Positions 1 through 18,262 of a DNA stretch of 64,000 nt are shown here, piece by piece. Each line of letters starts with the position of its first letter. The first letter of the stretch is position 1. The notes beneath the pieces are model-generated. The model saw nothing but the letters and a program-made list of their open reading frames with translations. It was not told where the DNA came from and ran no database searches. Source of the stretch: Agathobacter sp. (GTDB lineage Bacteria; Bacillota; Clostridia; Lachnospirales; Lachnospiraceae); assembly GCA_036308125.1 (NCBI GenBank), contig JAXJWH010000136.1:23499-87498 (forward strand), in the 5' to 3' direction. Both the position numbers and the translations under genes were made by a program.

Positions 1-68
1 TTTAATCCCTTTTTATGAAATACATTAATTGTTGCATTTAAAATCTGTTCCTTACGTTCTACCATCAT
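1..68 (-). CDS. TetR/AcrR-family transcriptional regulator, N-terminal fragment; the gene runs off the left edge
   Basis: Reverse-strand ATG at 66-68 is preceded by AGAAGG. Translation MMVERKEQILNATINVFHKKGL resembles the start of a TetR HTH. Only 22 codons are visible. Confidence 0.4.
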   Translation of the reverse strand, partial: MMVERKEQILNATINVFHKKGL

Positions 69-281
69 GCACCGCCTTCTAAAATTGTCACTTTATATTT
101 TGTATATACTTTTTTTGTTCTCATTATAGCATATACCGGAAACTATTTACAAGAAACTATATTTACAAAATTGTTTCCATTTATTGTGCATATTAGCAAG
201 ACAAAATTGAAAATATTCGCTATAATTATAGTATATGTATTTTAACTATTTATTTTCAAATGAGAAATTCGGGAGGTTAAA

Positions 282-1628
282 ATGAAAACACTTTACATCG
301 AATGCAAAATGGGCGCTGCCGGCGATATGATTATGGGGGCATTATATGAGCTTTTAGACTCAGAACATAAGCAAAAATTCATAAATATGATGAATACTTT
401 GTTTGGTTCTGATATACATATTCATCCAATTCAGACAACTCAATGTGGAATAGCAGGAACTCACATGGATATCAGCGTTATCGGAAAAAAGGAACACGCA
501 AACAACTCATCCATTATTGAGATAACTAATCCAAATGGTGATTCATCTGTATCTGAAGATACCAGAAAATACGTTGAAATTACCACCGGACACATTCATA
601 CCCATTCTTTAGGAAAAACGGCTGAAACTGCCGAACACCACGAACATTATACATATGCAAGTATTTTGCGAAAATTAAAGATTTTACCACTTCCGGAATC
701 GATACGAGAAAATGCCACTTCAATTTACAAAACAATCGGAGAAGCTGAAGCCAGCGTTCACGATGTTGATTTAAAAGATATCCATTTTCATGAAGTAGGT
801 TCCATGGACGCAATTGCTGATGTCTTAGGATGCTGTATCCTGTTTTCAATGATAAATGCAGACCAGGTTATTGTTTCCCCAATTCATGTGGGTAACGGCG
901 TTGTCGAATGTCAGCATGGTATTCTTCCGGTACCTGCCCCTGCTACAGCAGAAATACTTAAAGGAATACCTTATTATACAGGCTCAATTGATTCAGAGCT
1001 TTGCACTCCAACAGGAGCTGCAATACTAAGACATTATGCAACTAGATTTTCAACAATGCCAATAATGACTGTTGCAAAAAGTGGAATAGGATTTGGCTCA
1101 AAAGAATTTCCGGTTGCAAATGCAGTTCGCACTTTTCTGGGTGAAACAATGAATATACAATTTTCCACAAAGGATGCCCAGGAGGAAAATTCAACAGATG
1201 ACGAAAAAGTTATAGAATTGCTTTGTAATATTGATGATATGACCGGAGAAGAAATCGGTTTCGTTATGGATATGCTGTTTCAAAATGGTGCTTTGGACGT
1301 ATATTATCAGCCAATTCAGATGAAGAAAAACAGACCGGGAATTATGTTAAGCTGTCTTACCAAAATGGATAAAAAAGAAGATTTGACAAATATATTACTA
1401 AAATATACCTCAACAAGGGGAGTCCGATTTCATACTTTCGGACGTACCAGTTTAGAATCCAAAATTGAAGAAATCCCCACTAAATATGGGACAATTCATA
1501 AGAAAATAAGCTATGGTCATGGCATAGAAAAATATAAATACGAATATGAAGATATTAAGGAAATAGCAATTAAAAATGATATTTCAATAGACACGCTTCT
1601 TAAAGAATTATATTCAGAAAATAAATAA
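282..1628 (+). CDS. larC: LarC-family nickel insertion protein (DUF111; pyridinium-3,5-bisthiocarboxylate mononucleotide nickel chelatase)
   Basis: N-terminus MKTLYIECKMGAAGDMIMGAL, a His-rich insert (HIHTHS..EHHEH) and the C-terminal MKKNRPG motif are typical of LarC. RBS GGGAGG lies upstream. Confidence 0.8.
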   Translation: MKTLYIECKMGAAGDMIMGALYELLDSEHKQKFINMMNTLFGSDIHIHPIQTTQCGIAGTHMDISVIGKKEHANNSSIIEITNPNGDSSVSEDTRKYVEITTGHIHTHSLGKTAETAEHHEHYTYASILRKLKILPLPESIRENATSIYKTIGEAEASVHDVDLKDIHFHEVGSMDAIADVLGCCILFSMINADQVIVSPIHVGNGVVECQHGILPVPAPATAEILKGIPYYTGSIDSELCTPTGAAILRHYATRFSTMPIMTVAKSGIGFGSKEFPVANAVRTFLGETMNIQFSTKDAQEENSTDDEKVIELLCNIDDMTGEEIGFVMDMLFQNGALDVYYQPIQMKKNRPGIMLSCLTKMDKKEDLTNILLKYTSTRGVRFHTFGRTSLESKIEEIPTKYGTIHKKISYGHGIEKYKYEYEDIKEIAIKNDISIDTLLKELYSENK

Positions 1629-1634
1629 ATTAAA

Positions 1635-1669
1635 ATGCGTAGTAACCACAAGTTACTACGCATTTTGTT
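1635..1669. terminator. Bidirectional rho-independent terminator between convergent larC and the amylase gene
   Basis: Perfect 12-bp stem atgcgtagtaac / gttactacgcat with a 5-nt loop, flanked by an A-run and a T-run. Confidence 0.8.
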
Positions 1670-1680
1670 ATTTTAGCATT

Positions 1681-4600
1681 TTATTTCTTATACTGATCTT
1701 TTACATAAGTATTAAATATGTCCATTAATTTTGTGATATAAGATTTAAAATTAATTTTTGTTGATGGCTTATCATTTTTAACTAAGATGCTTGTACCACC
1801 CTTTGAAGTAGCTGGTATAGTAATCTTAACTTTTCCATTCTTATCAGTTGTGTATGTCTTTCCAGTATATAAATCTTTGTATTTAACACCCTTCTTGCTG
1901 TCTACCTTAACAGTAACTTCTTTATCTGTTGAGTTAAGATTTAAACCAACGTAGAGTGAATTCTTATATGATGTACGCTTGAATACTTCATACTTCTCTT
2001 CATCAGAAGCTACAACTTTTTCTCTGTTACCCTTTGTGAAGATATCTTTGTACTGGTTTCTGATCTTTAATAATTTCTTGTAGTGATTAAGCATACTATC
2101 CTGATCTTTTGCCTGTTTTTCTGCTTCATCCCAATCGAAATCATATCTGTTTGTCTGGTATGGATAATCATTTGCACCATACTGTCCAAGTTCTTCACCG
2201 TAGTAAATAATTGTCTGTCCCTTAGCTGTAAGCTGTAAGCTTGCTGCTACCTTGAATAAATCTAATGCTTCGTCTTCTTTAAAACCATTCTCATTGATAA
2301 GTTTATAAACAAGACCGTCCTCATCATGACTGCTTAAGAAAGAACCAAGAGTAGCTGTGTTATTAAGACTCTTATTTCTATTCTCTAAGAATGTCTCAAC
2401 AGATGAAATGTTTCCATTTACGAATGACTGTGCCTGATCATTAAAATCAAAGTCTAAAACTGAATCCATTCTACCTGTTCCAAGCATTTCTGCATTGTTT
2501 GCATATCCTGCTCCGGCATACTCACCAATCATCTTGAACTGTGGATCAATTGCTGTTAATTCATTTTTAAGAGCTGACCATGTTGTCTTGTCAACATGTT
2601 TTACAGTATCAATTCTGAAGTAATCAATACCATATTTCTCAACCCAGTTTGTCTGCCAGTCAATAAGCTGGTCTCTTACTGCTTCGTTTTCTGTAACAAA
2701 ATCAGGTAATCCTGAAAGTGATGAATAAACATCATCTCCTGTGATTGTGTTGCTGTCATCACGAATCATTGGAATGTAATTTCCATCATCGTCTTTTAAC
2801 AATGTGTTGAAGTAATCGCTTGTCTCATATCCTGCATGGTTAAGTACAACGTCTACCATTAACTTCATACCGTTCTTATGAACAGCTTTGATTAATGAAG
2901 AAAATTCCTTTTCTGTTCCTAAGTGTGGATTTAATTTTGTAAAATCATCAGCCCAGTATCCATGGTATCCTGTTGATTCAATTTCTTCATCTTCTTTTTC
3001 TGTTGTTGTATCGCTATTTGATACAATTGGAGTAATCCAGATTGTATTTACTCCTAGATCCTTTAAGTAGCTTAATTTCTTCTGTAATCCGGCAAAGTCA
3101 CCACCATGATAACTTAATGTACCTTCTTTATCTACGCCTTCGTTGTTGTTACTGTTTCCATCAAAGAATCTGTCAGTAACTGTGAAGTAAATGTTAGCTT
3201 CATCCCAGTCAAAATCGCTTGTAGTTTTGCTTACAACATTTACATAAGCATTAGCTTTGTAAACATTTCCGTAAATATCTGTTACAGTAACTGGAAGTTT
3301 CTTCTTACCATTTTTAACTGTATTTAATACTGAAATTGATAATTTCTTTAAAGAAATATCTACATCAGATGTAGCACCACCTAATGCCTTTAAATCAACC
3401 TTAATGCTCTTAATTTCATCATCTGTAATCTTTTTAGCATCATCGCCCTTGAATGAAACGCTAAGAACGTTATTTTCATCATAGCTCATGCCTTTATTCT
3501 TAACAGATGCTGAAACTGTTAATTTACTAAATTTCTTAAATGTTAATAACGAACATTCTTTTTCTTTGTATGTTGTTGTCTTGTCATTATATGCATCTAA
3601 AACAACATTTCCATTTACTAAATAATAGTATGCGTAATCACCTGTCTTGCAATTTGTTAATGAATAGTAATATCTTTCATTTTTGCTATCATATTTCATT
3701 GAATATGATTTTCCATTAATTACGACTTTAACTTTTCCTTCAAGTGATGACTCTTTGCAATCCTTTAAAAGCATGTCATCTCTATAGTAGAAATCAATCT
3801 TGTTGTCAGAACCTTTGATTTCATAACCTTTGTTATAAGCAAGTGTTGATACAACACCTTCGCCCTGAACGAATTTAGCCTTAACTACGTTCTGATCTGC
3901 TGGTACTGTTACGTAATGGTCACCGCCATCTTTTGACTCCCACATATTCTCTTCTGTAGAATGTCTCATACAAAAACCAAGGATGAATTCTTTTTCAGAA
4001 TCCTTAACAGGAACTACAAAATAATGCTTACCATCAATTTCTTCAGTGTAAATTTCTGTTCCACTTCCGAATCCGCTGTTCCATGAATAAATGTTCCATC
4101 CTGAATAATCGTTATCTGCTCTCTCATATTCAACTACAACATAACGATCTCTTAATTTCTTAATTTCAGGAAGAGTTGTATATGTATTTGAATCATCACC
4201 GTATACAATATAAAGATCAGTAACTGCTGCCTTATCTGTATTCTTGTAGTAATGATTTCCTGTCTGCCAAGACCATTCTCCGTAAGATCTTGGAATCATT
4301 CCTAAATCTGTAGCAGTTGTTTCAAAAGATGCCTTTAACCACTGTTTTCCATCTTCTAATGTCTCTAATGAAGTAAACTCAATGGCTCCAATATTTCCAG
4401 CGCCTTCTTCCCAAACCCATAAATCAGTGCTGTCTGTTGCCATATGACTTAAATTAGTATCATAGTAATATACATTATATGTATATTTTTCAGGTTCCTT
4501 ATTTGGATCATAATCAGGATCTAATGTATCAATAATAGTTGTATACTCCTTGTCAAGATACCATGTTGGAACATTGTCTGTTTCTTTATCGAACTTACAA

Positions 4601-5010
4601 TATAAATCTGTAGGCTCATCACCTGTGCAAAATTCCATAGCTTTTGAATAGCCTTTTCCTGCTGTGTTAGCATCAGGATTTGCATAATCTAAAAACTGAA
4701 ATCCGCTAAAATCTTTACCTTTGATTGTAAGTGTATACCATCCGTCACCTTCACTTTTAAGTTTAGTAACGTCTACGCCCCATGACTCAAGTGTTGTAGT
4801 TTCACCTGAAACTTCAGCAGTTCCTATTGGCCAAAACTGCAATGCTGGTTCAGCCCAATCATAGGTGTTGTAAAAATGTAATCTGAGATTTTTCTCGCCA
4901 CTTTCAGCTGCATAAGCTGTTGTGTTAACTCCTGCTGGAAACAGGGAAACAACCATAGCAAGTATTAGCAGACATGCTAAAACTTTTCCTTTCCTAAATA
5001 ATCTTCTCAT
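1681..5010 (-). CDS. Secreted multidomain GH13 alpha-amylase/pullulanase-like enzyme with long N-terminal accessory (CBM/Ig-like) region
   Basis: Signal peptide ends in AYA-AE. GH13 conserved regions are DVVLNHAG, YFRIDTVKHV, MIGEYAG and FLSSHDE. There is no C-terminal cell-wall sorting signal. RBS GGAGGTAGG. Confidence 0.85.
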   Translation of the reverse strand: MRRLFRKGKVLACLLILAMVVSLFPAGVNTTAYAAESGEKNLRLHFYNTYDWAEPALQFWPIGTAEVSGETTTLESWGVDVTKLKSEGDGWYTLTIKGKDFSGFQFLDYANPDANTAGKGYSKAMEFCTGDEPTDLYCKFDKETDNVPTWYLDKEYTTIIDTLDPDYDPNKEPEKYTYNVYYYDTNLSHMATDSTDLWVWEEGAGNIGAIEFTSLETLEDGKQWLKASFETTATDLGMIPRSYGEWSWQTGNHYYKNTDKAAVTDLYIVYGDDSNTYTTLPEIKKLRDRYVVVEYERADNDYSGWNIYSWNSGFGSGTEIYTEEIDGKHYFVVPVKDSEKEFILGFCMRHSTEENMWESKDGGDHYVTVPADQNVVKAKFVQGEGVVSTLAYNKGYEIKGSDNKIDFYYRDDMLLKDCKESSLEGKVKVVINGKSYSMKYDSKNERYYYSLTNCKTGDYAYYYLVNGNVVLDAYNDKTTTYKEKECSLLTFKKFSKLTVSASVKNKGMSYDENNVLSVSFKGDDAKKITDDEIKSIKVDLKALGGATSDVDISLKKLSISVLNTVKNGKKKLPVTVTDIYGNVYKANAYVNVVSKTTSDFDWDEANIYFTVTDRFFDGNSNNNEGVDKEGTLSYHGGDFAGLQKKLSYLKDLGVNTIWITPIVSNSDTTTEKEDEEIESTGYHGYWADDFTKLNPHLGTEKEFSSLIKAVHKNGMKLMVDVVLNHAGYETSDYFNTLLKDDDGNYIPMIRDDSNTITGDDVYSSLSGLPDFVTENEAVRDQLIDWQTNWVEKYGIDYFRIDTVKHVDKTTWSALKNELTAIDPQFKMIGEYAGAGYANNAEMLGTGRMDSVLDFDFNDQAQSFVNGNISSVETFLENRNKSLNNTATLGSFLSSHDEDGLVYKLINENGFKEDEALDLFKVAASLQLTAKGQTIIYYGEELGQYGANDYPYQTNRYDFDWDEAEKQAKDQDSMLNHYKKLLKIRNQYKDIFTKGNREKVVASDEEKYEVFKRTSYKNSLYVGLNLNSTDKEVTVKVDSKKGVKYKDLYTGKTYTTDKNGKVKITIPATSKGGTSILVKNDKPSTKINFKSYITKLMDIFNTYVKDQYKK

Positions 5011-5022
5011 ATCCTACCTCCG

Positions 5023-5049
5023 TTTTCGTACTTTTCGTACTTTTTCGTA
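5023..5049 (-). repeat. Three direct copies of TTTTCGTA (mRNA sense TACGAAAA) at 9-10 nt spacing in the amylase 5' leader
   Basis: Copies start at 5023, 5032 and 5042, directly upstream of the RBS of the 1681-5010 gene. Function unknown. Confidence 0.5.
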
Positions 5050-5213
5050 ATTTATTATAATCTATTTTTTTACAGCTTAATAGTGGTATAATACAAGAAA
5101 ATGAATCAATTTTTTTGTATATTTTTACCAAATTTTATCTATTTTAACTTTCTTTTACTATTTCTGCACACCAAATTAAATCCTGAAATAATCAATATTA
5201 TATGCATGTTAAC

Positions 5214-5243
5214 AAAAAAAAGCCTGCTAATGCAGACTTTTTT
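5214..5243. terminator. Probable terminator at the end of fibre operon 1
   Basis: A-run, imperfect 7-bp stem (agcctgc/gcagact, one mismatch), 4-nt loop and T-run. It overlaps the stop codon of the 5227-5697 ORF. The stem is weak. Confidence 0.4.
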
Positions 5244-5697
5244 GTGTAATATCATCTTCAATTTCAAATTTTCTTGGACTCATGTCTATAGAAATATTCT
5301 CCGGATATCTTTCGTGTGCCTCTAAAATAGTAAGCCACAAAGAATGTATACTATAAATTAACATATTAGATGCTTCCACTGAAAAATTCAATAATGCCTC
5401 TAATTCGAATACTCTTATTCCAAGCGGAGGAAGAAATACTAAATTGTTGCTTTTCTCCTCTTCACCATTACTGTGTATCATCTCATAAGTAATAATCAGA
5501 AATTCTTTTCCTTTAAATGTACAATTGTATGATACAAATACCTCATCTACCACCCACTTTGTTCCGTCTTCTTCTACGGTAACTTTCTCTTCATTATACT
5601 CAGATGTCTGTCCAATTATCTTCCATGACAATTTTCCTAACTTTGTTTCTTTAATCATTTCCTGAAGATCTCTTTGTAATTCTTCTTCTTTCTTCAT
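5227..5697 (-). CDS. Hypothetical protein, no signal peptide; last gene of fibre operon 1
   Basis: 156-aa ORF, 27 nt downstream of the peptidase-sortase fusion gene. No family recognised by eye. Confidence 0.5.
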   Translation of the reverse strand: MKKEEELQRDLQEMIKETKLGKLSWKIIGQTSEYNEEKVTVEEDGTKWVVDEVFVSYNCTFKGKEFLIITYEMIHSNGEEEKSNNLVFLPPLGIRVFELEALLNFSVEASNMLIYSIHSLWLTILEAHERYPENISIDMSPRKFEIEDDITQKSLH

Positions 5698-5724: not shown

Positions 5725-6945
5725 TTAATATATATATGAATCTATCAACACGCCATGCACAACAAATCTTTCTTCCCCATTTGTGCATGTGGACAATGTT
5801 ACTATTTTATCGTCAACTGATACATTCACTCCAGTATTATTATACGAAATTTTATTTAGGTAATCAATATAACTTTCAAACTCCCGATCGTTTTTTTCAA
5901 ACAAAGTATATACTTTATCGGAATTTAAAACTTTTTCATAACCAAAAATCTGATATCTGTATTTCTTACCATCTAATACAATTTGAAAATACTGATGATT
6001 CTTGTAATACTCCTCATCCTGATAATAGTATCTTAATTTTCCAAACATGGAAAGATCCTTCATGTTATGACCATATAATATCGTATGTAAATCCATAAAA
6101 TCAGTTTTATTTCCTGCTTCCATAAAAATAGAACCCGTTCTTGAACTTCTATTATCCACTGAAGTATACAAATATCTTTCATTATCTCCGGAATAAAGCA
6201 CCGGATAACTGATATCTTCATCCTCGAAAAATATCCATCCTATTATATCCTGATTTTCTTTTTTCAAATCACTTATATCGATATCTATATAATTATACCA
6301 TTCTTTTTCCTTTTTTGAATTATCCGATACCTCATCATTCATGGTTTCGTATACATCATTTGATTTTTTTAAATCACTTATATAATCAATCACCTTATAT
6401 GCCGAAAAACAAATTAATGCTATTCCTGCAATAAAACACAGCGTATGTACAATTTCTTTATTATTGCTTCCTTTATTTATCTTTTTGATATCAGACGAAA
6501 TAAGTAAAATCGAACCTAGCAAAAATACCACAGCCATGAAGATTTTGCCGTTTGCACTGTTAAATAAAAAAAGCCAAACCGCTGAATTTCTCACACAAAA
6601 TCTTACTTTTCCAATTACATGCGAAAAATGTACCTTGTCAGCATCAAACTCATCATTACCATCACCTTTGGTAATAAGTAATCCGTCATCATCATCAACC
6701 TGACATACTCTGTGGCTTACAACATTATTTCTATCTGTTCCAATATAAAATGCCACCACATCTCCTGACTCAATTTCCTTTGGAGCAGTGCTATCAACAA
6801 AAATAACACTGCCCTTTGGAATGGTTGGCTCCATACTTGAAGTTTTTACTTCATATATGTTCCATCCTATTATGTGAGGTATTGAAAAAGGTATGGCACA
6901 TACACATATAAACAAAAGACATATTTTTCCAATTAACTTTTTCAT
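5725..6945 (-). CDS. Fusion protein: SipW-type (S26B, archaeal/ER-type) signal peptidase I domain + two TM segments + class B sortase domain
   Basis: The N-terminal half has TSSMEP (Ser), VSHRV (His) and KGDGN. The C-terminal half has IIGWI..ISYPV..DNERYL..GSIFME..ILYGHNM..MFGKL, then TLSTC (Cys) and ERFVVHG (Arg). A K-rich loop between TM2 and TM3 fits both domains facing outward. RBS AAGAAGG. Confidence 0.75.
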   Translation of the reverse strand: MKKLIGKICLLFICVCAIPFSIPHIIGWNIYEVKTSSMEPTIPKGSVIFVDSTAPKEIESGDVVAFYIGTDRNNVVSHRVCQVDDDDGLLITKGDGNDEFDADKVHFSHVIGKVRFCVRNSAVWLFLFNSANGKIFMAVVFLLGSILLISSDIKKINKGSNNKEIVHTLCFIAGIALICFSAYKVIDYISDLKKSNDVYETMNDEVSDNSKKEKEWYNYIDIDISDLKKENQDIIGWIFFEDEDISYPVLYSGDNERYLYTSVDNRSSRTGSIFMEAGNKTDFMDLHTILYGHNMKDLSMFGKLRYYYQDEEYYKNHQYFQIVLDGKKYRYQIFGYEKVLNSDKVYTLFEKNDREFESYIDYLNKISYNNTGVNVSVDDKIVTLSTCTNGEERFVVHGVLIDSYIY

Positions 6946-6955
6946 ACCTTCTTAA

Positions 6956-7567
6956 TTACCAACCAATTATTTCATTTTCACTATTAACCACCGGCTCAAA
7001 ATTCTCACTTTGAACAGCTTCAGCCTGAATAGTTACCTTAAATGATTTACCAACTTCTTTTTCATCCCATTCGCATGGAATAAATGTCTTGGTAAATACA
7101 GGAACATTAACATTCTTATTCTCATTACTTTCTACTATATCATTGTAATAATAATATCCGTCAGAACTTAATGTCCATCCGCTTTCTTCGGTATTTAATT
7201 TAATCTTATCCAATTCATCTTTAAGACCATCTTCTTTAGAAAAATCTTCGCCAACTCCTTCGATAGATATTTTTGCTCTGATATACACATCTTCTGAGTC
7301 TGATTTTACAATAACTAATGGTTCTTTGCTTATTTCATCTCCAGGTAAGATATCATTATATATGATTGATTTAACCAGATTATTTTTTCTTTTAATAATC
7401 TTAGCACTCTCATCTGTAGTCTTTTCTGTAATATCAATATCAACCTTACCTGCTACTATCTCACTTTTTTGTTCATCAGTATCCGTAAAATATGCAAGTG
7501 TACCACCTAATGATATTGTGGCAACAACTGCTGCCGCCAAGGCAATAACAACTACTTTCTTTTTCAT
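6956..7567 (-). CDS. TasA/CalY (camelysin, Peptidase_M73)-like secreted protein with SipW-cognate signal peptide
   Basis: MKKKVVVIALAAAVVATISLGGTLAYFTDTDE followed by AGKVDIDI. No C-terminal anchor. Confidence 0.7.
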   Translation of the reverse strand: MKKKVVVIALAAAVVATISLGGTLAYFTDTDEQKSEIVAGKVDIDITEKTTDESAKIIKRKNNLVKSIIYNDILPGDEISKEPLVIVKSDSEDVYIRAKISIEGVGEDFSKEDGLKDELDKIKLNTEESGWTLSSDGYYYYNDIVESNENKNVNVPVFTKTFIPCEWDEKEVGKSFKVTIQAEAVQSENFEPVVNSENEIIGW

Positions 7568-7582
7568 ATTACATCTCCAAAT

Positions 7583-8386
7583 TTATTTATTATTTAATTT
7601 TGTTCCACCAGACAGCTTTAATAATTCTTCCTTTGCCAAATCATAATCTACATTTCTTGCCTGTATCATATAACCATCTACATCAATGTTAAATGAAGGA
7701 AGTCTGCCAACAACACTTTCTACCAGTTTTCCATCTTTTAATACATAATACTTATTTGAAGAACTATAATTTTCTGTTGTTACATTTGTAAGTATATAAT
7801 ATTTTCCATCAACTGTTTTTTTCTCAACTGTAGCCTTGTCATATTCACTCTTTGTTACCTGAGTATAATATTTTTTACCTGAATTTGAAGAACTAATTGT
7901 AGTTTTTATACCAGTATTGATTAATACCTTGTCAAAAATCGGATTTGTTCTTTCATTAGGTTTCAACGTAGACTTATACATATATATTCTATCGTTTCCA
8001 TTTACTCCGATTAATTCATAATCTTTTGTATTAAATCCTTCTTTTCCGTTGGATGTCACAGTCGCATAATCACTTTGGAATTTCTCATATGTTATACTTT
8101 CATTCTCTAAAGAAATTGATACCTTTACCGCAACCCATGCCTCAATGGAATTGTTATCATTTATAATCTGAGGATCTTTATTAATCAAAGTTCCTGGTAC
8201 ATATGAACTTGCCTTTTCTTCATCATAATTTGGTTCTTCTAATTCACCATGTATTCTGTTATCCATAGTGATTATATTCTCAACCTCAGACGTTTCATCT
8301 GTAAAATATGCCATTGTCCCGCCTACAGACAATACTGCAACTAAAGCTACCGAGCAGGCAACTACTTTTAAATTTCTCTTTTTCAT
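7583..8386 (-). CDS. TasA/CalY-like secreted protein with SipW-cognate signal peptide
   Basis: MKKRNLKVVACSVALVAVLSVGGTMAYFTDETSE. RBS GGGGAGG. No C-terminal anchor. Confidence 0.7.
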   Translation of the reverse strand: MKKRNLKVVACSVALVAVLSVGGTMAYFTDETSEVENIITMDNRIHGELEEPNYDEEKASSYVPGTLINKDPQIINDNNSIEAWVAVKVSISLENESITYEKFQSDYATVTSNGKEGFNTKDYELIGVNGNDRIYMYKSTLKPNERTNPIFDKVLINTGIKTTISSSNSGKKYYTQVTKSEYDKATVEKKTVDGKYYILTNVTTENYSSSNKYYVLKDGKLVESVVGRLPSFNIDVDGYMIQARNVDYDLAKEELLKLSGGTKLNNK

Positions 8387-8399
8387 AATAATGCCTCCC

Positions 8400-9044
8400 C
8401 TAGTTCTGATAAATTAATTTTCCACCTGATGTCGGATTACTCCATGCATCATTTGCTGCACCTGAAGTTGTCTGTATTGCATCTACTAAAACATCCATTT
8501 CCAAATGTCCCTCATCCGGTAAATCTGATTTATCTACACCCTCTTTAAGCTCTACCGAACTTAAAAGATAATCTGTATAGCAATCAACATCAACAATTCC
8601 TGTAAAATAAAAATATCCGTCATCGCCTTTTACCCATTCACCGTCAACATCACTGGCATCACCTTTGTAAATGGAATTATTCAGGTTCAAATTATATTTA
8701 AGTAAAGATTCTGCATCAACAGGAGCGATTACTTCTTTACCGTCCTTTGTAGTTACCCATGTTGCTACATATTTTGCTCTTACATAAATAGGTACAAGTG
8801 AAAGTTCGCCATCCAAAGTATCATTCTTATACCTTACAACCTTATTCACTGAACCATCTCTTATGTCGCCTGATTCAAATTTTTCATCAATTGTGACATT
8901 TACGATTGCATGTTTAAATATATTGTGAAGTCCATTTGTTTTAAATGTTAAATATGCAAGTGTTCCACTAAAACTAACTATTAAAATACCAATTACAGCT
9001 AAAACCGATAAACTCAGTTTCCGCTTTTTTGTGGCCTTAGACAT
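8400..9044 (-). CDS. TasA/CalY-like secreted protein with variant SipW-cognate signal peptide
   Basis: K-rich n-region, hydrophobic core, then FSGTLAYLTFKTN and VNVTIDEKF. It overlaps the upstream sipW by 31 nt. Confidence 0.6.
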   Translation of the reverse strand: MSKATKKRKLSLSVLAVIGILIVSFSGTLAYLTFKTNGLHNIFKHAIVNVTIDEKFESGDIRDGSVNKVVRYKNDTLDGELSLVPIYVRAKYVATWVTTKDGKEVIAPVDAESLLKYNLNLNNSIYKGDASDVDGEWVKGDDGYFYFTGIVDVDCYTDYLLSSVELKEGVDKSDLPDEGHLEMDVLVDAIQTTSGAANDAWSNPTSGGKLIYQN

Positions 9045-17496: not shown

Positions 17497-18198
17497 TTAT
17501 TTTGAATCCTCTGAAATGTAATTAATTACTTTATTATTACACGAATCAACTGAAAACTGAGGGTAAACTCCCCACTCCGCAGCTATAGCATCTTCTTCAT
17601 TATTGACCTGTACAGCATTTACCTCTGTTTCGATGTTCAATTTTGCCTTGGAATATTTATTATCCATGTCACTGTTACATGAAATCATACTTAAAAAGTC
17701 CTGAGACTGTGAATCACTGCTAATTGGTTTTGTATAATACATTTGTAATTGCTCATTGTCATAATATGTTACAATCCAATCCCCTACTTTAATCTGCTCA
17801 TCATATGAACCTATATATACATCTGAACCATTTTTAGGTATTTCAACGTAATTGGCATTTTTCTTGTTACCGGTATTGATATATAACGAGAGCATATCTT
17901 CATCTTTATCAATTTTTGCTTCTTTATTATTTTGTTCCCAATCAAATGTCACATACACTTTGGCATACACGTCGTACCCGCCTACATTCTTAACTTTATA
18001 AGAAACCTCTGATTCGCCACCAGGCATAATCTTGATGTCATCATCAATATCTGATACTGTTTTAACCTTGAGAGATCTTTCAGATATTTTCTCTATAATT
18101 GATGAACTGTAATCCGACTTAGTTGCCATTGTTCCACCTATCAAAGCTGTTACTGCAACAACAGCTGTTGTTAACATTAATAAATACTTCTTTTTCAC
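17497..18198 (-). CDS. TasA/CalY-like secreted protein with variant SipW-cognate signal peptide
   Basis: Start moved to a GTG (VKKKYLLML), because GGAGGA lies 7 nt upstream and falls inside the longer ORF. Motifs: VTALIGGTMATKSD and IKIMPGGESEVSYKVKN. The next gene starts 14 nt downstream. Confidence 0.6.
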   Translation of the reverse strand: MKKKYLLMLTTAVVAVTALIGGTMATKSDYSSSIIEKISERSLKVKTVSDIDDDIKIMPGGESEVSYKVKNVGGYDVYAKVYVTFDWEQNNKEAKIDKDEDMLSLYINTGNKKNANYVEIPKNGSDVYIGSYDEQIKVGDWIVTYYDNEQLQMYYTKPISSDSQSQDFLSMISCNSDMDNKYSKAKLNIETEVNAVQVNNEEDAIAAEWGVYPQFSVDSCNNKVINYISEDSK

Positions 18199-18262
18199 TC
18201 TAAATTCCTCCATGTATAGGGATAAAATTACTTATTGACTGAGTGAATTATATACTTCTAAT

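Follow-up and report, generated by a model that had tools for sequence, protein, structure and literature searches.

A natural fusion of a SipW-type signal peptidase and a class B sortase in Agathobacter and other Lachnospiraceae, encoded beside TasA-like proteins

Can a signal peptidase and a sortase be made as one polypeptide, and if so, on what would they act? The question is raised by an open reading frame (ORF) in a 64,000-nucleotide (nt) stretch of Agathobacter sp. DNA (Lachnospiraceae; GenBank assembly GCA_036308125.1, contig JAXJWH010000136.1, positions 23,499 to 87,498 of the forward strand), hereafter the window. The initial annotation of this stretch, made from the letters alone, described the ORF as one polypeptide combining a SipW-type (S26B) signal peptidase with a class B sortase, and proposed that the two activities could be coupled on the same substrate. 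We found that the fusion is a real, natural gene encoding an intact SipW-type peptidase and an intact class B sortase, and that its neighbours point to a different division of labour between the halves. Translation of positions 5725–6945 yielded a single uninterrupted ORF of 406 aa on the minus strand, in which all motifs previously quoted were located: KTSSMEP (with Ser37), SHRV (His78) and KGDGN (aa 93–97) for the peptidase, the Lys-rich loop DIKKINKGSNNKE at aa 153–165, and IIGWI, YPV, DNERYL, GSIFME, YGHNM (His293), MFGKL, TLSTC (Cys387) and the downstream Arg393 for the sortase. The gene had also been credited with its own ribosome-binding site. A purine run, AAGAAGG, is indeed present; it lies within the 10-nt spacer that separates the fusion from the stop of the TasA-like gene upstream, its last base only 1 nt away from the ATG, and translational coupling is at least as likely as an independent Shine-Dalgarno sequence.

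The two halves were assigned by separate profiles. Residues 9–154 scored 76.0 bits against NCBIfam TIGR02228 (sigpep_I_arch, the archaeal/endoplasmic reticulum (ER)-type signal peptidase I; cut-off 51.85), and residues 166–391 scored 156.8 bits against TIGR03064 (sortase_srtB), exceeding the cut-off of 153.75 by a narrow margin. The Pfam models Sortase (PF04203; 42.4 vs 26.6), Peptidase_S24 and Peptidase_S26 all exceeded their gathering scores. The cut-off of the Bacillus SipW equivalog model, NF046067, was not reached (62.8 bits vs 190), and the peptidase half, judged by these scores, is SipW-like and not an orthologue of Bacillus SipW. Among the sequences of the PDB, the sortase half matched the SrtB proteins of Listeria monocytogenes, Bacillus anthracis, Staphylococcus aureus and Clostridioides difficile (E 1e-29 to 1e-24 overall, 1e-29 to 1e-26 for the first three), and the only non-sortase matches of the fusion were human SEC11A/C, found with the peptidase half (E 3e-5 to 1e-4).

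That an assembly, frameshift or gene-calling error had merged two genes, a possibility raised in the initial annotation, can practically be dismissed. At least 13 contigs carry exactly this 406-aa ORF, and the eight examined came from eight different sequencing runs, always with one ORF and the same neighbours. Searching 5.8 billion proteins, we obtained over 100 clusters of homologues that span the full length (407–466 aa, 33–44% identity, about 99% coverage), including proteins of Lachnobacterium bovis, Blautia and Pseudobutyrivibrio that carry the source names 'class B sortase' or 'signal peptidase I'. When our own domain profiles were applied to the best 120 clusters formed at 90% identity, 115 proved to contain both domains; of the best 150 formed at 50% identity, 52 did. 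The fusion is also present in isolate genomes, e.g. those of Lachnobacterium bovis and Pseudobutyrivibrio sp. 49. What an artefact reading could call upon are short chimeric fragments of the fusion protein in metagenome assemblies (P0121, P0126 and P0175); these are short proteins, 97–99% identical to parts of the fusion and continuing into unrelated sequence, and they most likely represent chimeric or broken metagenome contigs and not natural split forms. The artefact reading was rejected on the identical ORF from several runs, the many two-domain clusters and the isolate genomes. All named hosts of the homologues belong to the Lachnospiraceae, except for one metagenome-assembled genome (MAG) labelled only 'Clostridia'; in the GTDB species representatives, fused genes were found in Blautia, Pseudobutyrivibrio (five loci), Agathobacter, Acetatifactor, unnamed Lachnospiraceae and the 'Clostridia' MAG. 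By these counts the architecture is common in the Lachnospiraceae.

Conservation was assessed on 172 distinct full-length fusion proteins, aligned with the window protein, to which they are 26–45% identical. Ser37, His78, Asp95 and Asp101, i.e. the ER-type Ser-His pair and the Asp residues of the GDxN region, were each present in 171 or 172 of the 172 proteins, and the same was true of the sortase triad His293, Cys387 and Arg393, with Cys387 in the TLSTC signature. Roles are assigned here as in mutagenesis of SipW and Sec11, with a catalytic Ser-His pair, not Ser-Lys, and the conserved Asp residues of the GDxN box. The statement that the catalytic residues of both domains are present therefore holds at all seven positions across the family, and both active sites appear to be under selection.

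An AlphaFold2 model of the fusion, built with 20 homologues in the alignment, had a mean predicted local distance difference test score (pLDDT) of 82 and a predicted TM-score (pTM) of 0.56, the latter giving no basis for the relative orientation of the two catalytic domains. Helices of the model span aa 2–26, 131–156 and 164–206, and together with a hydropathy scan they define three transmembrane (TM) segments in the window protein, TM1 at about aa 8–26, TM2 at about 125–156 and TM3 at about 165–186. The two hydrophobic segments noted earlier correspond to TM2 and TM3, and TM1 had been missed. Exactly three segments were detected by the hydropathy scan in 148 of the 172 fusions. The loop between TM2 and TM3 ranges from 7 to 136 aa among the fusion homologues and contains on average 7.1 Lys/Arg residues, with 2.5 in the N-terminal tail. 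Since three helices are combined with a basic N-terminal tail and a basic TM2-TM3 loop, the positive-inside rule predicts that both catalytic domains lie outside, as had been proposed. The sortase half of the model has the SrtB fold, matching the structures 2OQW, 5JCV, 1NG5 and 5B23 with TM-scores of 0.77–0.87 (Foldseek, E about 1e-17).

How the fusion may have arisen is indicated by a relative with separate genes. In a Roseburia locus (L021), a sipW gene (179 aa) and a srtB gene (261 aa) occupy the operon position equivalent to that of the fusion, the stop codon of sipW overlapping the start of srtB by 4 nt in a different frame, and the two products pass the TIGR02228 and TIGR03064 cut-offs as the halves of the fusion do. 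The sipW stop and srtB start map to the TM2-TM3 loop of the fusion. It is thus probable, though far from certain, that the fusion arose by joining of a neighbouring sipW-srtB gene pair; because the C-terminus of SipW and the N-terminus of the sortase would both be cytoplasmic, joining by loss of the stop codon would leave the topology unchanged. An Agathobacter locus (L011) was considered as a second split case and set aside. Its 252-aa SrtB and the sortase half of the fused protein P0002 share 80% identity, whereas the adjoining SipW is only 41% identical to the peptidase half of P0002, so that this locus probably reflects a recent loss of the peptidase domain; by eye, this SipW resembles the stand-alone type. 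On a rough neighbour-joining tree, about 5 changes of the fused state were counted among 76 genome loci and 27 among 304 sequences, the latter figure being inflated by metagenome fragments. Since the tree is rough and fragments inflate the larger figure, asking whether fusion occurred once yields only that the trait is labile; the pattern suggests several fusion or fission events. The fusion may accordingly be looked upon as a labile 'Rosetta stone' of a gene pair and not as a new catalytic entity.

Sortase B domains were also found joined to other partners. Proteins of 1500–1850 aa with a class B sortase at the C-terminus occur in Butyrivibrio (L018 and L022) and among the homologues collected (P0160, P0164, P0166, P0169, P0170, P0172, P0186, P0189, P0190 and P0218); the two that were scanned, P0160 and P0166, contain Listeria-Bacteroides (Flg_new) repeats besides the sortase B domain. 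Shorter sortase fusions include one of 583 aa with Flg_new and one of 665 aa in which SH3_3 is matched weakly, short of the Pfam cut-off. Given these Flg_new and other fusions, sortase B seems to have several fusion partners in the Lachnospiraceae.

The features of the window that bear on the function of the fusion are collected in Table 1. Two of the neighbouring proteins exceed the cut-off of TIGR04088 (the SipW-dependent signal peptide), as expected of a SipW-dependent TasA/BsaA fibre system, and four match TIGR04090 (the BsaA family) with E values of about 1e-7 to 6e-13, all below the cut-off of 60. No LPXTG or other C-terminal sorting signal was detected on the TasA-like proteins of the window or on the 970-aa protein, and the stand-alone SipW has none either. 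Among the ORFs of at least 100 aa in the window, a hydrophobic stretch and then a basic tail at the C-terminus were seen only in that of the 589-aa protein, which is the likely substrate of the sortase.

Table 1. Features of the fusion gene and its neighbourhood in the window (↓, signal peptide cleavage site)
Feature	Position	Strand	Basis
Fusion gene, 406 aa: SipW-type (S26B) signal peptidase + class B sortase	5725–6945	minus	ORF, translation, domain profiles
Peptidase half, aa 1–160	6466–6945	minus	TIGR02228, SEC11A/C matches, residue conservation, helices
Peptidase residues Ser37, His78, Asp95, Asp101	6835–6837, 6712–6714, 6661–6663, 6643–6645	minus	Kept in 171–172 of 172 fusions
Lys-rich, predicted cytoplasmic TM2-TM3 loop DIKKINKGSNNKE, aa 153–165; putative junction of ancestral genes	6451–6489	minus	Homologues; Roseburia L021
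TM3, about aa 165–186, predicted N-terminal membrane anchor of the sortase half	6388–6453	minus	AlphaFold2 helix 164–206; hydropathy segment 165–183
Sortase B catalytic domain, aa about 216–406	5728–6300	minus	TIGR03064, Foldseek, triad conservation
Sortase triad His293, Cys387, Arg393	6067–6069, 5785–5787, 5767–5769	minus	Kept in 171–172 of 172 fusions
156-aa protein, no signal peptide, no known family, directly downstream of the sortase	5227–5697	minus	Homologues in 10 loci
TasA/BsaA-like protein 1, 203 aa, SipW-type signal peptide GGTLA↓YFTD, no sorting signal	6956–7567	minus	TIGR04088, 29.3 bits (cut-off 19); Peptidase_M73 (camelysin/TasA family), 27.7 (22.5)
TasA/BsaA-like protein 2, 267 aa, SipW-type signal peptide GGTMA↓YFTD	7583–8386	minus	TIGR04088, 26.3 bits (cut-off 19); TIGR04090, E 3.7e-7
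TasA/BsaA-like protein 3, 214 aa	8400–9044	minus	TIGR04090, E 6.4e-13, 49 bits, below cut-off 60
Second, stand-alone SipW-type signal peptidase, 175 aa	9014–9541	minus	TIGR02228, 93.4 bits (cut-off 51.85)
Secreted 970-aa protein with fibro-slime, PA14-like and SpaA-fold domains, candidate tip/adhesin, no sorting signal	9546–12458	minus	Profiles; equivalent position in L003, L012, L016, L021
Regulator: winged-helix DNA-binding + BTAD + weak GGDEF region (below cut-off)	14345–15559	minus	Pfam; kept in L003, L011, L016, L021
589-aa protein, likely sortase substrate: TasA-like-looking N-half ending VKTSD + TM + KKKN, then signal-like segment, second ectodomain, C-terminal TM + RNKSKK	15713–17482	minus	C-terminal scan, neighbour loci, hhalign, Foldseek
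VKTSD, putative sortase B recognition motif, aa 217–221 of the 589-aa protein	16820–16834	minus	DNA; homologue motifs
TasA/BsaA-like protein 4, 238 aa, directly upstream of the 589-aa protein	17497–18213	minus	TIGR04090, E 8e-9; pairing repeated in L004–L011, L016

The putative sorting signal lies within the 589-aa ORF, which has the look of two surface proteins fused in frame. At the junction of its halves (about 16670–16834), VKTSD, a TM segment and KKKN lead straight into a segment resembling a signal peptide, IKIFSFLIAATCMLALVNTESVNA↓ADT, and then into a second ectodomain. An equivalent in-frame layout exists in Agathobacter locus L016 (613 aa, KYVKTGD..KNKKSKK..TVKA↓AST), and the two halves are encoded by separate adjacent or overlapping genes beside the fusion or SrtB in L004–L011 and L035. 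At the position of VKTSD the homologues carry VKTGD, PKTGD, NPRTGD, NPITGD, NPVTGD, NPQTGD, NPLTSD, VMTGD or VQTGD, with T-G/S-D directly preceding the TM segment and basic tail, giving the consensus x-K/P-x-T-G/S-D. A protein with this arrangement adjoins the fusion in 10 of 14 fused loci. The window motif, VKTSD + TM + KKKN, thus represents, by its sequence, a putative NPxTG-like substrate close to the enzyme. The consensus resembles known sortase B motifs, such as the (S/P)PKTG of C. difficile, whose SrtB has the proven sorting signals SPKTG and PPKTG (PMC5569036). In three loci (L051, L054 and L073), BsaA-like proteins of 554–601 aa end in (P/A)TKTGD + TM, and the SrtB encoded there is stand-alone; the gene of the TKTGD protein directly precedes that of SrtB in L051 and L054 and lies one gene before it in L073, in operons of TasA-like genes, the one in L051 starting with sipW.

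The N-terminal half of the 589-aa protein looks TasA-like, although the comparison is not conclusive: hhalign gave a probability of 84.6% against a TasA alignment, and the top three Foldseek matches of its AlphaFold2 model were Bacillus subtilis TasA (5OF1, 5OF2) with TM-scores of about 0.4. As a word-indexed homologue search with this half returned only 8 matches, the model is shallow and of low confidence (pLDDT 64.6). The C-terminal half was unrelated to the TasA alignment (hhalign 8.7%), and neither the 589-aa protein nor either half had a usable match in Pfam/NCBIfam, even at E 0.1. A homologue of the C-terminal half in L005 (8379–9464, 361 aa) matched MucBP just at threshold (23.5 bits, cut-off 23), a hint that the fibre system may bind mucin or carbohydrate. 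A second conserved tail motif, (D/E)-x-V/I/M-P-L/T/Q-A/S/G, was seen in L004–L008, L011, L016 and the window (15713–15800). It precedes the TM segment by a few to about 20 residues and occurs on T-G/S-D proteins as well as on the membrane proteins of ~360 aa, e.g. EELVPLAPKTGD, DEEVPLAAQ and PEVPKIS; one such tail matched NCBIfam NF033073 ('doubled motif LPXTG anchor') weakly, below its cut-off (E 1.4e-5).

Comparison of 16 fused or split loci revealed two recurring layouts. In layout A (the window, L003, L012, L016 and L021), a regulator, a large adhesin, a SipW and two or three TasA-like genes precede, in this order, the fusion, or sipW + srtB in L021. In layout B (L004–L010, partly L011 and L035), two TasA-like genes are followed by genes for a 240–308-aa sorting-signal protein and a ~360-aa membrane protein and by the fusion, and the 589-aa protein of the window corresponds to these two layout-B proteins in one ORF, as it does in L016. 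In L004–L010 (Blautia, Pseudobutyrivibrio), no SipW-type peptidase other than the fusion is encoded within 10 kb of the TasA-like genes with AYFT-type leaders. The functional partnership of the two enzymes suggested by the initial annotation is strongly indicated by the adjacent unfused sipW and srtB genes of relatives and by these conserved neighbourhoods. Directly upstream of the TasA-like/fusion module of L005 lies a canonical pilus cluster (38–5127) with two SpaA-fold proteins bearing LPxTG-type tails, one of which is matched by the Pfam anchor model, and two stand-alone sortases anchored in the membrane by their C-terminus, as is typical of class C. Proteins with LPxTG-type tails occur at the equivalent position in L004, L006, L007 and L010 (the Pfam scan having been made on L005), and the two fibre systems appear to be physically linked in these loci.

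These observations make it reasonably probable, in our judgement, that the fusion is a bifunctional three-pass membrane enzyme that makes wall-anchored TasA-type fibres, its two activities serving different subunits. Loss of the stop codon between sipW and srtB would have produced a single chain with both catalytic domains remaining on the outer face of the membrane. The peptidase half, with its Ser37/His78 dyad and Asp95 and Asp101, would remove the TasA-type leaders (..GGTLA↓YFTD..) of the neighbouring TasA/BsaA-like subunits, and the sortase half (His293/Cys387/Arg393) would cleave the x-K/P-x-T-G/S-D signal of a TasA-like anchor subunit, in the window the VKTSD of the 589-aa protein, and transfer that subunit to a cell-wall precursor, presumably of peptidoglycan, tethering the fibre. 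The fusion would thereby co-localise two processing steps of one fibre system at a fixed ratio of 1:1. The coupling on the same substrate proposed earlier was not supported in the window. The four proteins given as having SipW-type leaders, TasA/BsaA-like proteins 1 to 4, lack a C-terminal sorting signal, and the 589-aa protein, the sole bearer of such a signal, has an ordinary AxA-type leader and does not match the SipW-type signal model. Because leaders and sorting signal are separated in this way, the targets of the two activities are probably different subunits of a single fibre system.

Several other readings of the same clusters were weighed. That both halves work on a single substrate, the peptidase removing its leader and the sortase cutting its sorting signal, is rather improbable. 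Its sharpest version takes the 589-aa protein as a polyprotein which, cut by the sortase at VKTSD and by the peptidase after the internal ..VNA↓ADT, would yield two ectodomains; the in-frame sequence of VKTSD, TM, KKKN and signal-like segment, and its counterpart in the 613-aa protein of L016, would fit such processing. Yet in most fused loci (L004–L010, L035) the two halves are encoded separately. The BsaA-like proteins of L051, L054 and L073 do combine a TasA-style leader with a TKTGD signal, but these are exactly the loci with unfused enzymes, whereas the sorting-signal proteins of the fused loci have AxA leaders (VFA↓A, VYA↓A) that fail the SipW-type signal model, and the proteins with SipW-type leaders have no sorting signals. 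It is also unlikely that the sortase half is a fibre polymerase or ligase joining the T-G/S-D protein to a Lys or N-terminal amine of another subunit, in the manner of the class B pilus sortases of Streptococcus pyogenes and Streptococcus pneumoniae. Structural matches do include class B sortases of pilus islands (3PSQ, 4Y4Q); the co-encoded set of several TasA-like paralogues, one SpaA-fold protein and one MucBP protein would suit a heteropolymer, and the Blautia, Lachnospiraceae and Pseudobutyrivibrio loci L004–L007 and L010 adjoin LPxTG-type pilin genes, accompanied in L005, the only one of them scanned, by SpaA-fold pilins and two sortase genes. However, the sortase domain is closer in sequence to wall-anchoring SrtB (E 1e-29 to 1e-24) than to Spy0129 (E 1e-16), each module has only one subunit with a sorting signal, as expected of an anchor, and TasA-type fibres assemble by donor-strand exchange without a sortase (PMC11580942).

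A third possibility is that the peptidase-like half serves the sortase as a non-catalytic chaperone or docking module, like SipA (LepA) of S. pyogenes, a signal-peptidase homologue lacking the catalytic Ser and Lys, whose gene adjoins that of a class B sortase and which that sortase requires to polymerise pili (PMC4049620). The second, complete SipW of the window also speaks for this possibility. The retention of Ser37, His78, Asp95 and Asp101 in 171–172 of 172 fusions argues against a dead peptidase and led us to discard an inactive, SipA-like half; in addition, L004–L010 have no other SipW near their TasA-like genes, and the domain is of the ER/archaeal type, and not of the bacterial type of SipA, so that we regard this as highly improbable. 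Very doubtful, too, is a concerted reaction in which leader cleavage exposes an alpha-amino group, belonging either to a TasA-like subunit or to the second part of a 589-aa polyprotein, as the nucleophile for the neighbouring sortase acyl-enzyme. If true, it would give covalently end-linked, wall-tethered TasA-type fibres; to our knowledge, covalent end-linking is not an established assembly chemistry of Gram-positive fibres.

The bifunctional enzyme acting on different subunits remains our preferred reading, and a number of points weigh against it. The stand-alone SipW of the window could perform all leader cleavage, and in Lachnobacterium bovis (L001) the fusion has no TasA-like or sorting-signal gene within 10 kb. 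The motif of the window is VKTSD and not the commoner TGD form, and the assignment of the anchor as TasA-like is weak, with a low-confidence model and an hhalign probability below 90%. With about 5 state changes among the 76 loci, fusion would not seem to be essential to function. Finally, a sortase beside such an operon can be dispensable for the fibre: in Clostridium perfringens strain 13, srtB is divergently transcribed next to sipW-bsaA, and its deletion changed neither the BsaA polymers nor the pellicle (PMC7395162).

Other genes of the region deserve brief mention. The 156-aa protein encoded downstream of the fusion had no match in Pfam/NCBIfam, even at E 0.1, and in 10 loci a homologue of it is encoded after SrtB, whether fused or unfused. 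They form a family of 150–168 aa without a signal peptide or TM segment (L001, 11324–11797; L005, 11629–12114; L011, 11267–11719; L016, 10767–11237), members of which also follow the unfused SrtB of L013, L026, L052 and L064, and may represent a cytoplasmic partner for sortases of this clade. Two ORFs at 12621–14181 on the minus strand, located between the genes of the regulator and the 970-aa adhesin, resemble, by eye, the alpha and beta subunits of L-serine dehydratase; as the regulator and adhesin genes are adjacent in the syntenic L016, this segment looks like an insertion into the cluster. The ORFs of the stand-alone sipW and of TasA-like protein 3 overlap by 31 nt (9014–9044) as listed, and in two other assemblies of the same organism (L086 and L087) this sipW was called shorter, at 153 instead of 175 aa.

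Among known systems, that of S. pyogenes, cited in the initial annotation, is similar in that a peptidase-family protein and a class B sortase are co-encoded in one surface-fibre pathway (PMC4049620). The partnership is real and the fit is loose: SipA is a separate, LepB-like protein of bacterial type stripped of its catalytic residues, whereas the fusion is of the S26B (ER/archaeal) type, retains all of them, is joined covalently and does not belong with SipA/LepA; the S. pyogenes fibres consist of SpaA-type pilins, whereas those suggested here would be TasA-like. Closer parallels are the tapA-sipW-tasA operon of B. subtilis and sipW-bsaA-bsaB-bsaC of C. perfringens, in which an ER/archaeal-type peptidase is encoded with TasA-family subunits bearing SipW leaders. 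C. perfringens has a class B sortase gene beside sipW as a separate gene, whereas here peptidase and sortase are one polypeptide. TasA/BsaA genes are known to co-occur with genes for signal peptidases, sortases, LPXTG and SpaA-domain proteins, and an LPXTG signal is present on one of the BsaB orthologues in most strains of C. perfringens (PMC11580942). The clusters described here differ from such operons in the x-K/P-x-T-G/S-D motif, the fibro-slime/SpaA-fold protein, the MucBP-type membrane protein and the BTAD regulator. With the SrtB of C. difficile, B. anthracis, S. aureus and L. monocytogenes the sortase half has the fold and the His-Cys-Arg triad in common, but these enzymes have a single N-terminal membrane anchor, to which the fusion adds a complete signal peptidase and two TM helices upstream, and the associated motif differs from known SrtB motifs in the conserved Asp following T-G/S. 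No description of a signal peptidase-sortase fusion, functional or otherwise, was found in the literature searched (most subscription journals were outside its reach, and absence there is no proof), in agreement with the initial statement that no characterised example was known. What is new is the single-chain form, undescribed yet widespread, with its delineated motif and substrate set; the enzymes and their association were already known.

The fusion and its unfused Roseburia sister provide direct genetic evidence for SipW-type peptidases and class B sortases in one pathway, a link that has so far been puzzling, since C. perfringens srtB has no phenotype and S. pyogenes SipA is required by its class B sortase for unknown reasons. 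Concrete candidate substrates and a sorting motif on a TasA-like anchor subunit can now be named. A compact enzyme with both activities could also serve for surface display. The data suggest that abundant Lachnospiraceae of the gut and rumen (Agathobacter, Roseburia, Blautia, Pseudobutyrivibrio and Lachnobacterium) build wall-anchored TasA-type fibres, which could matter for adhesion to plant fibre or mucus.

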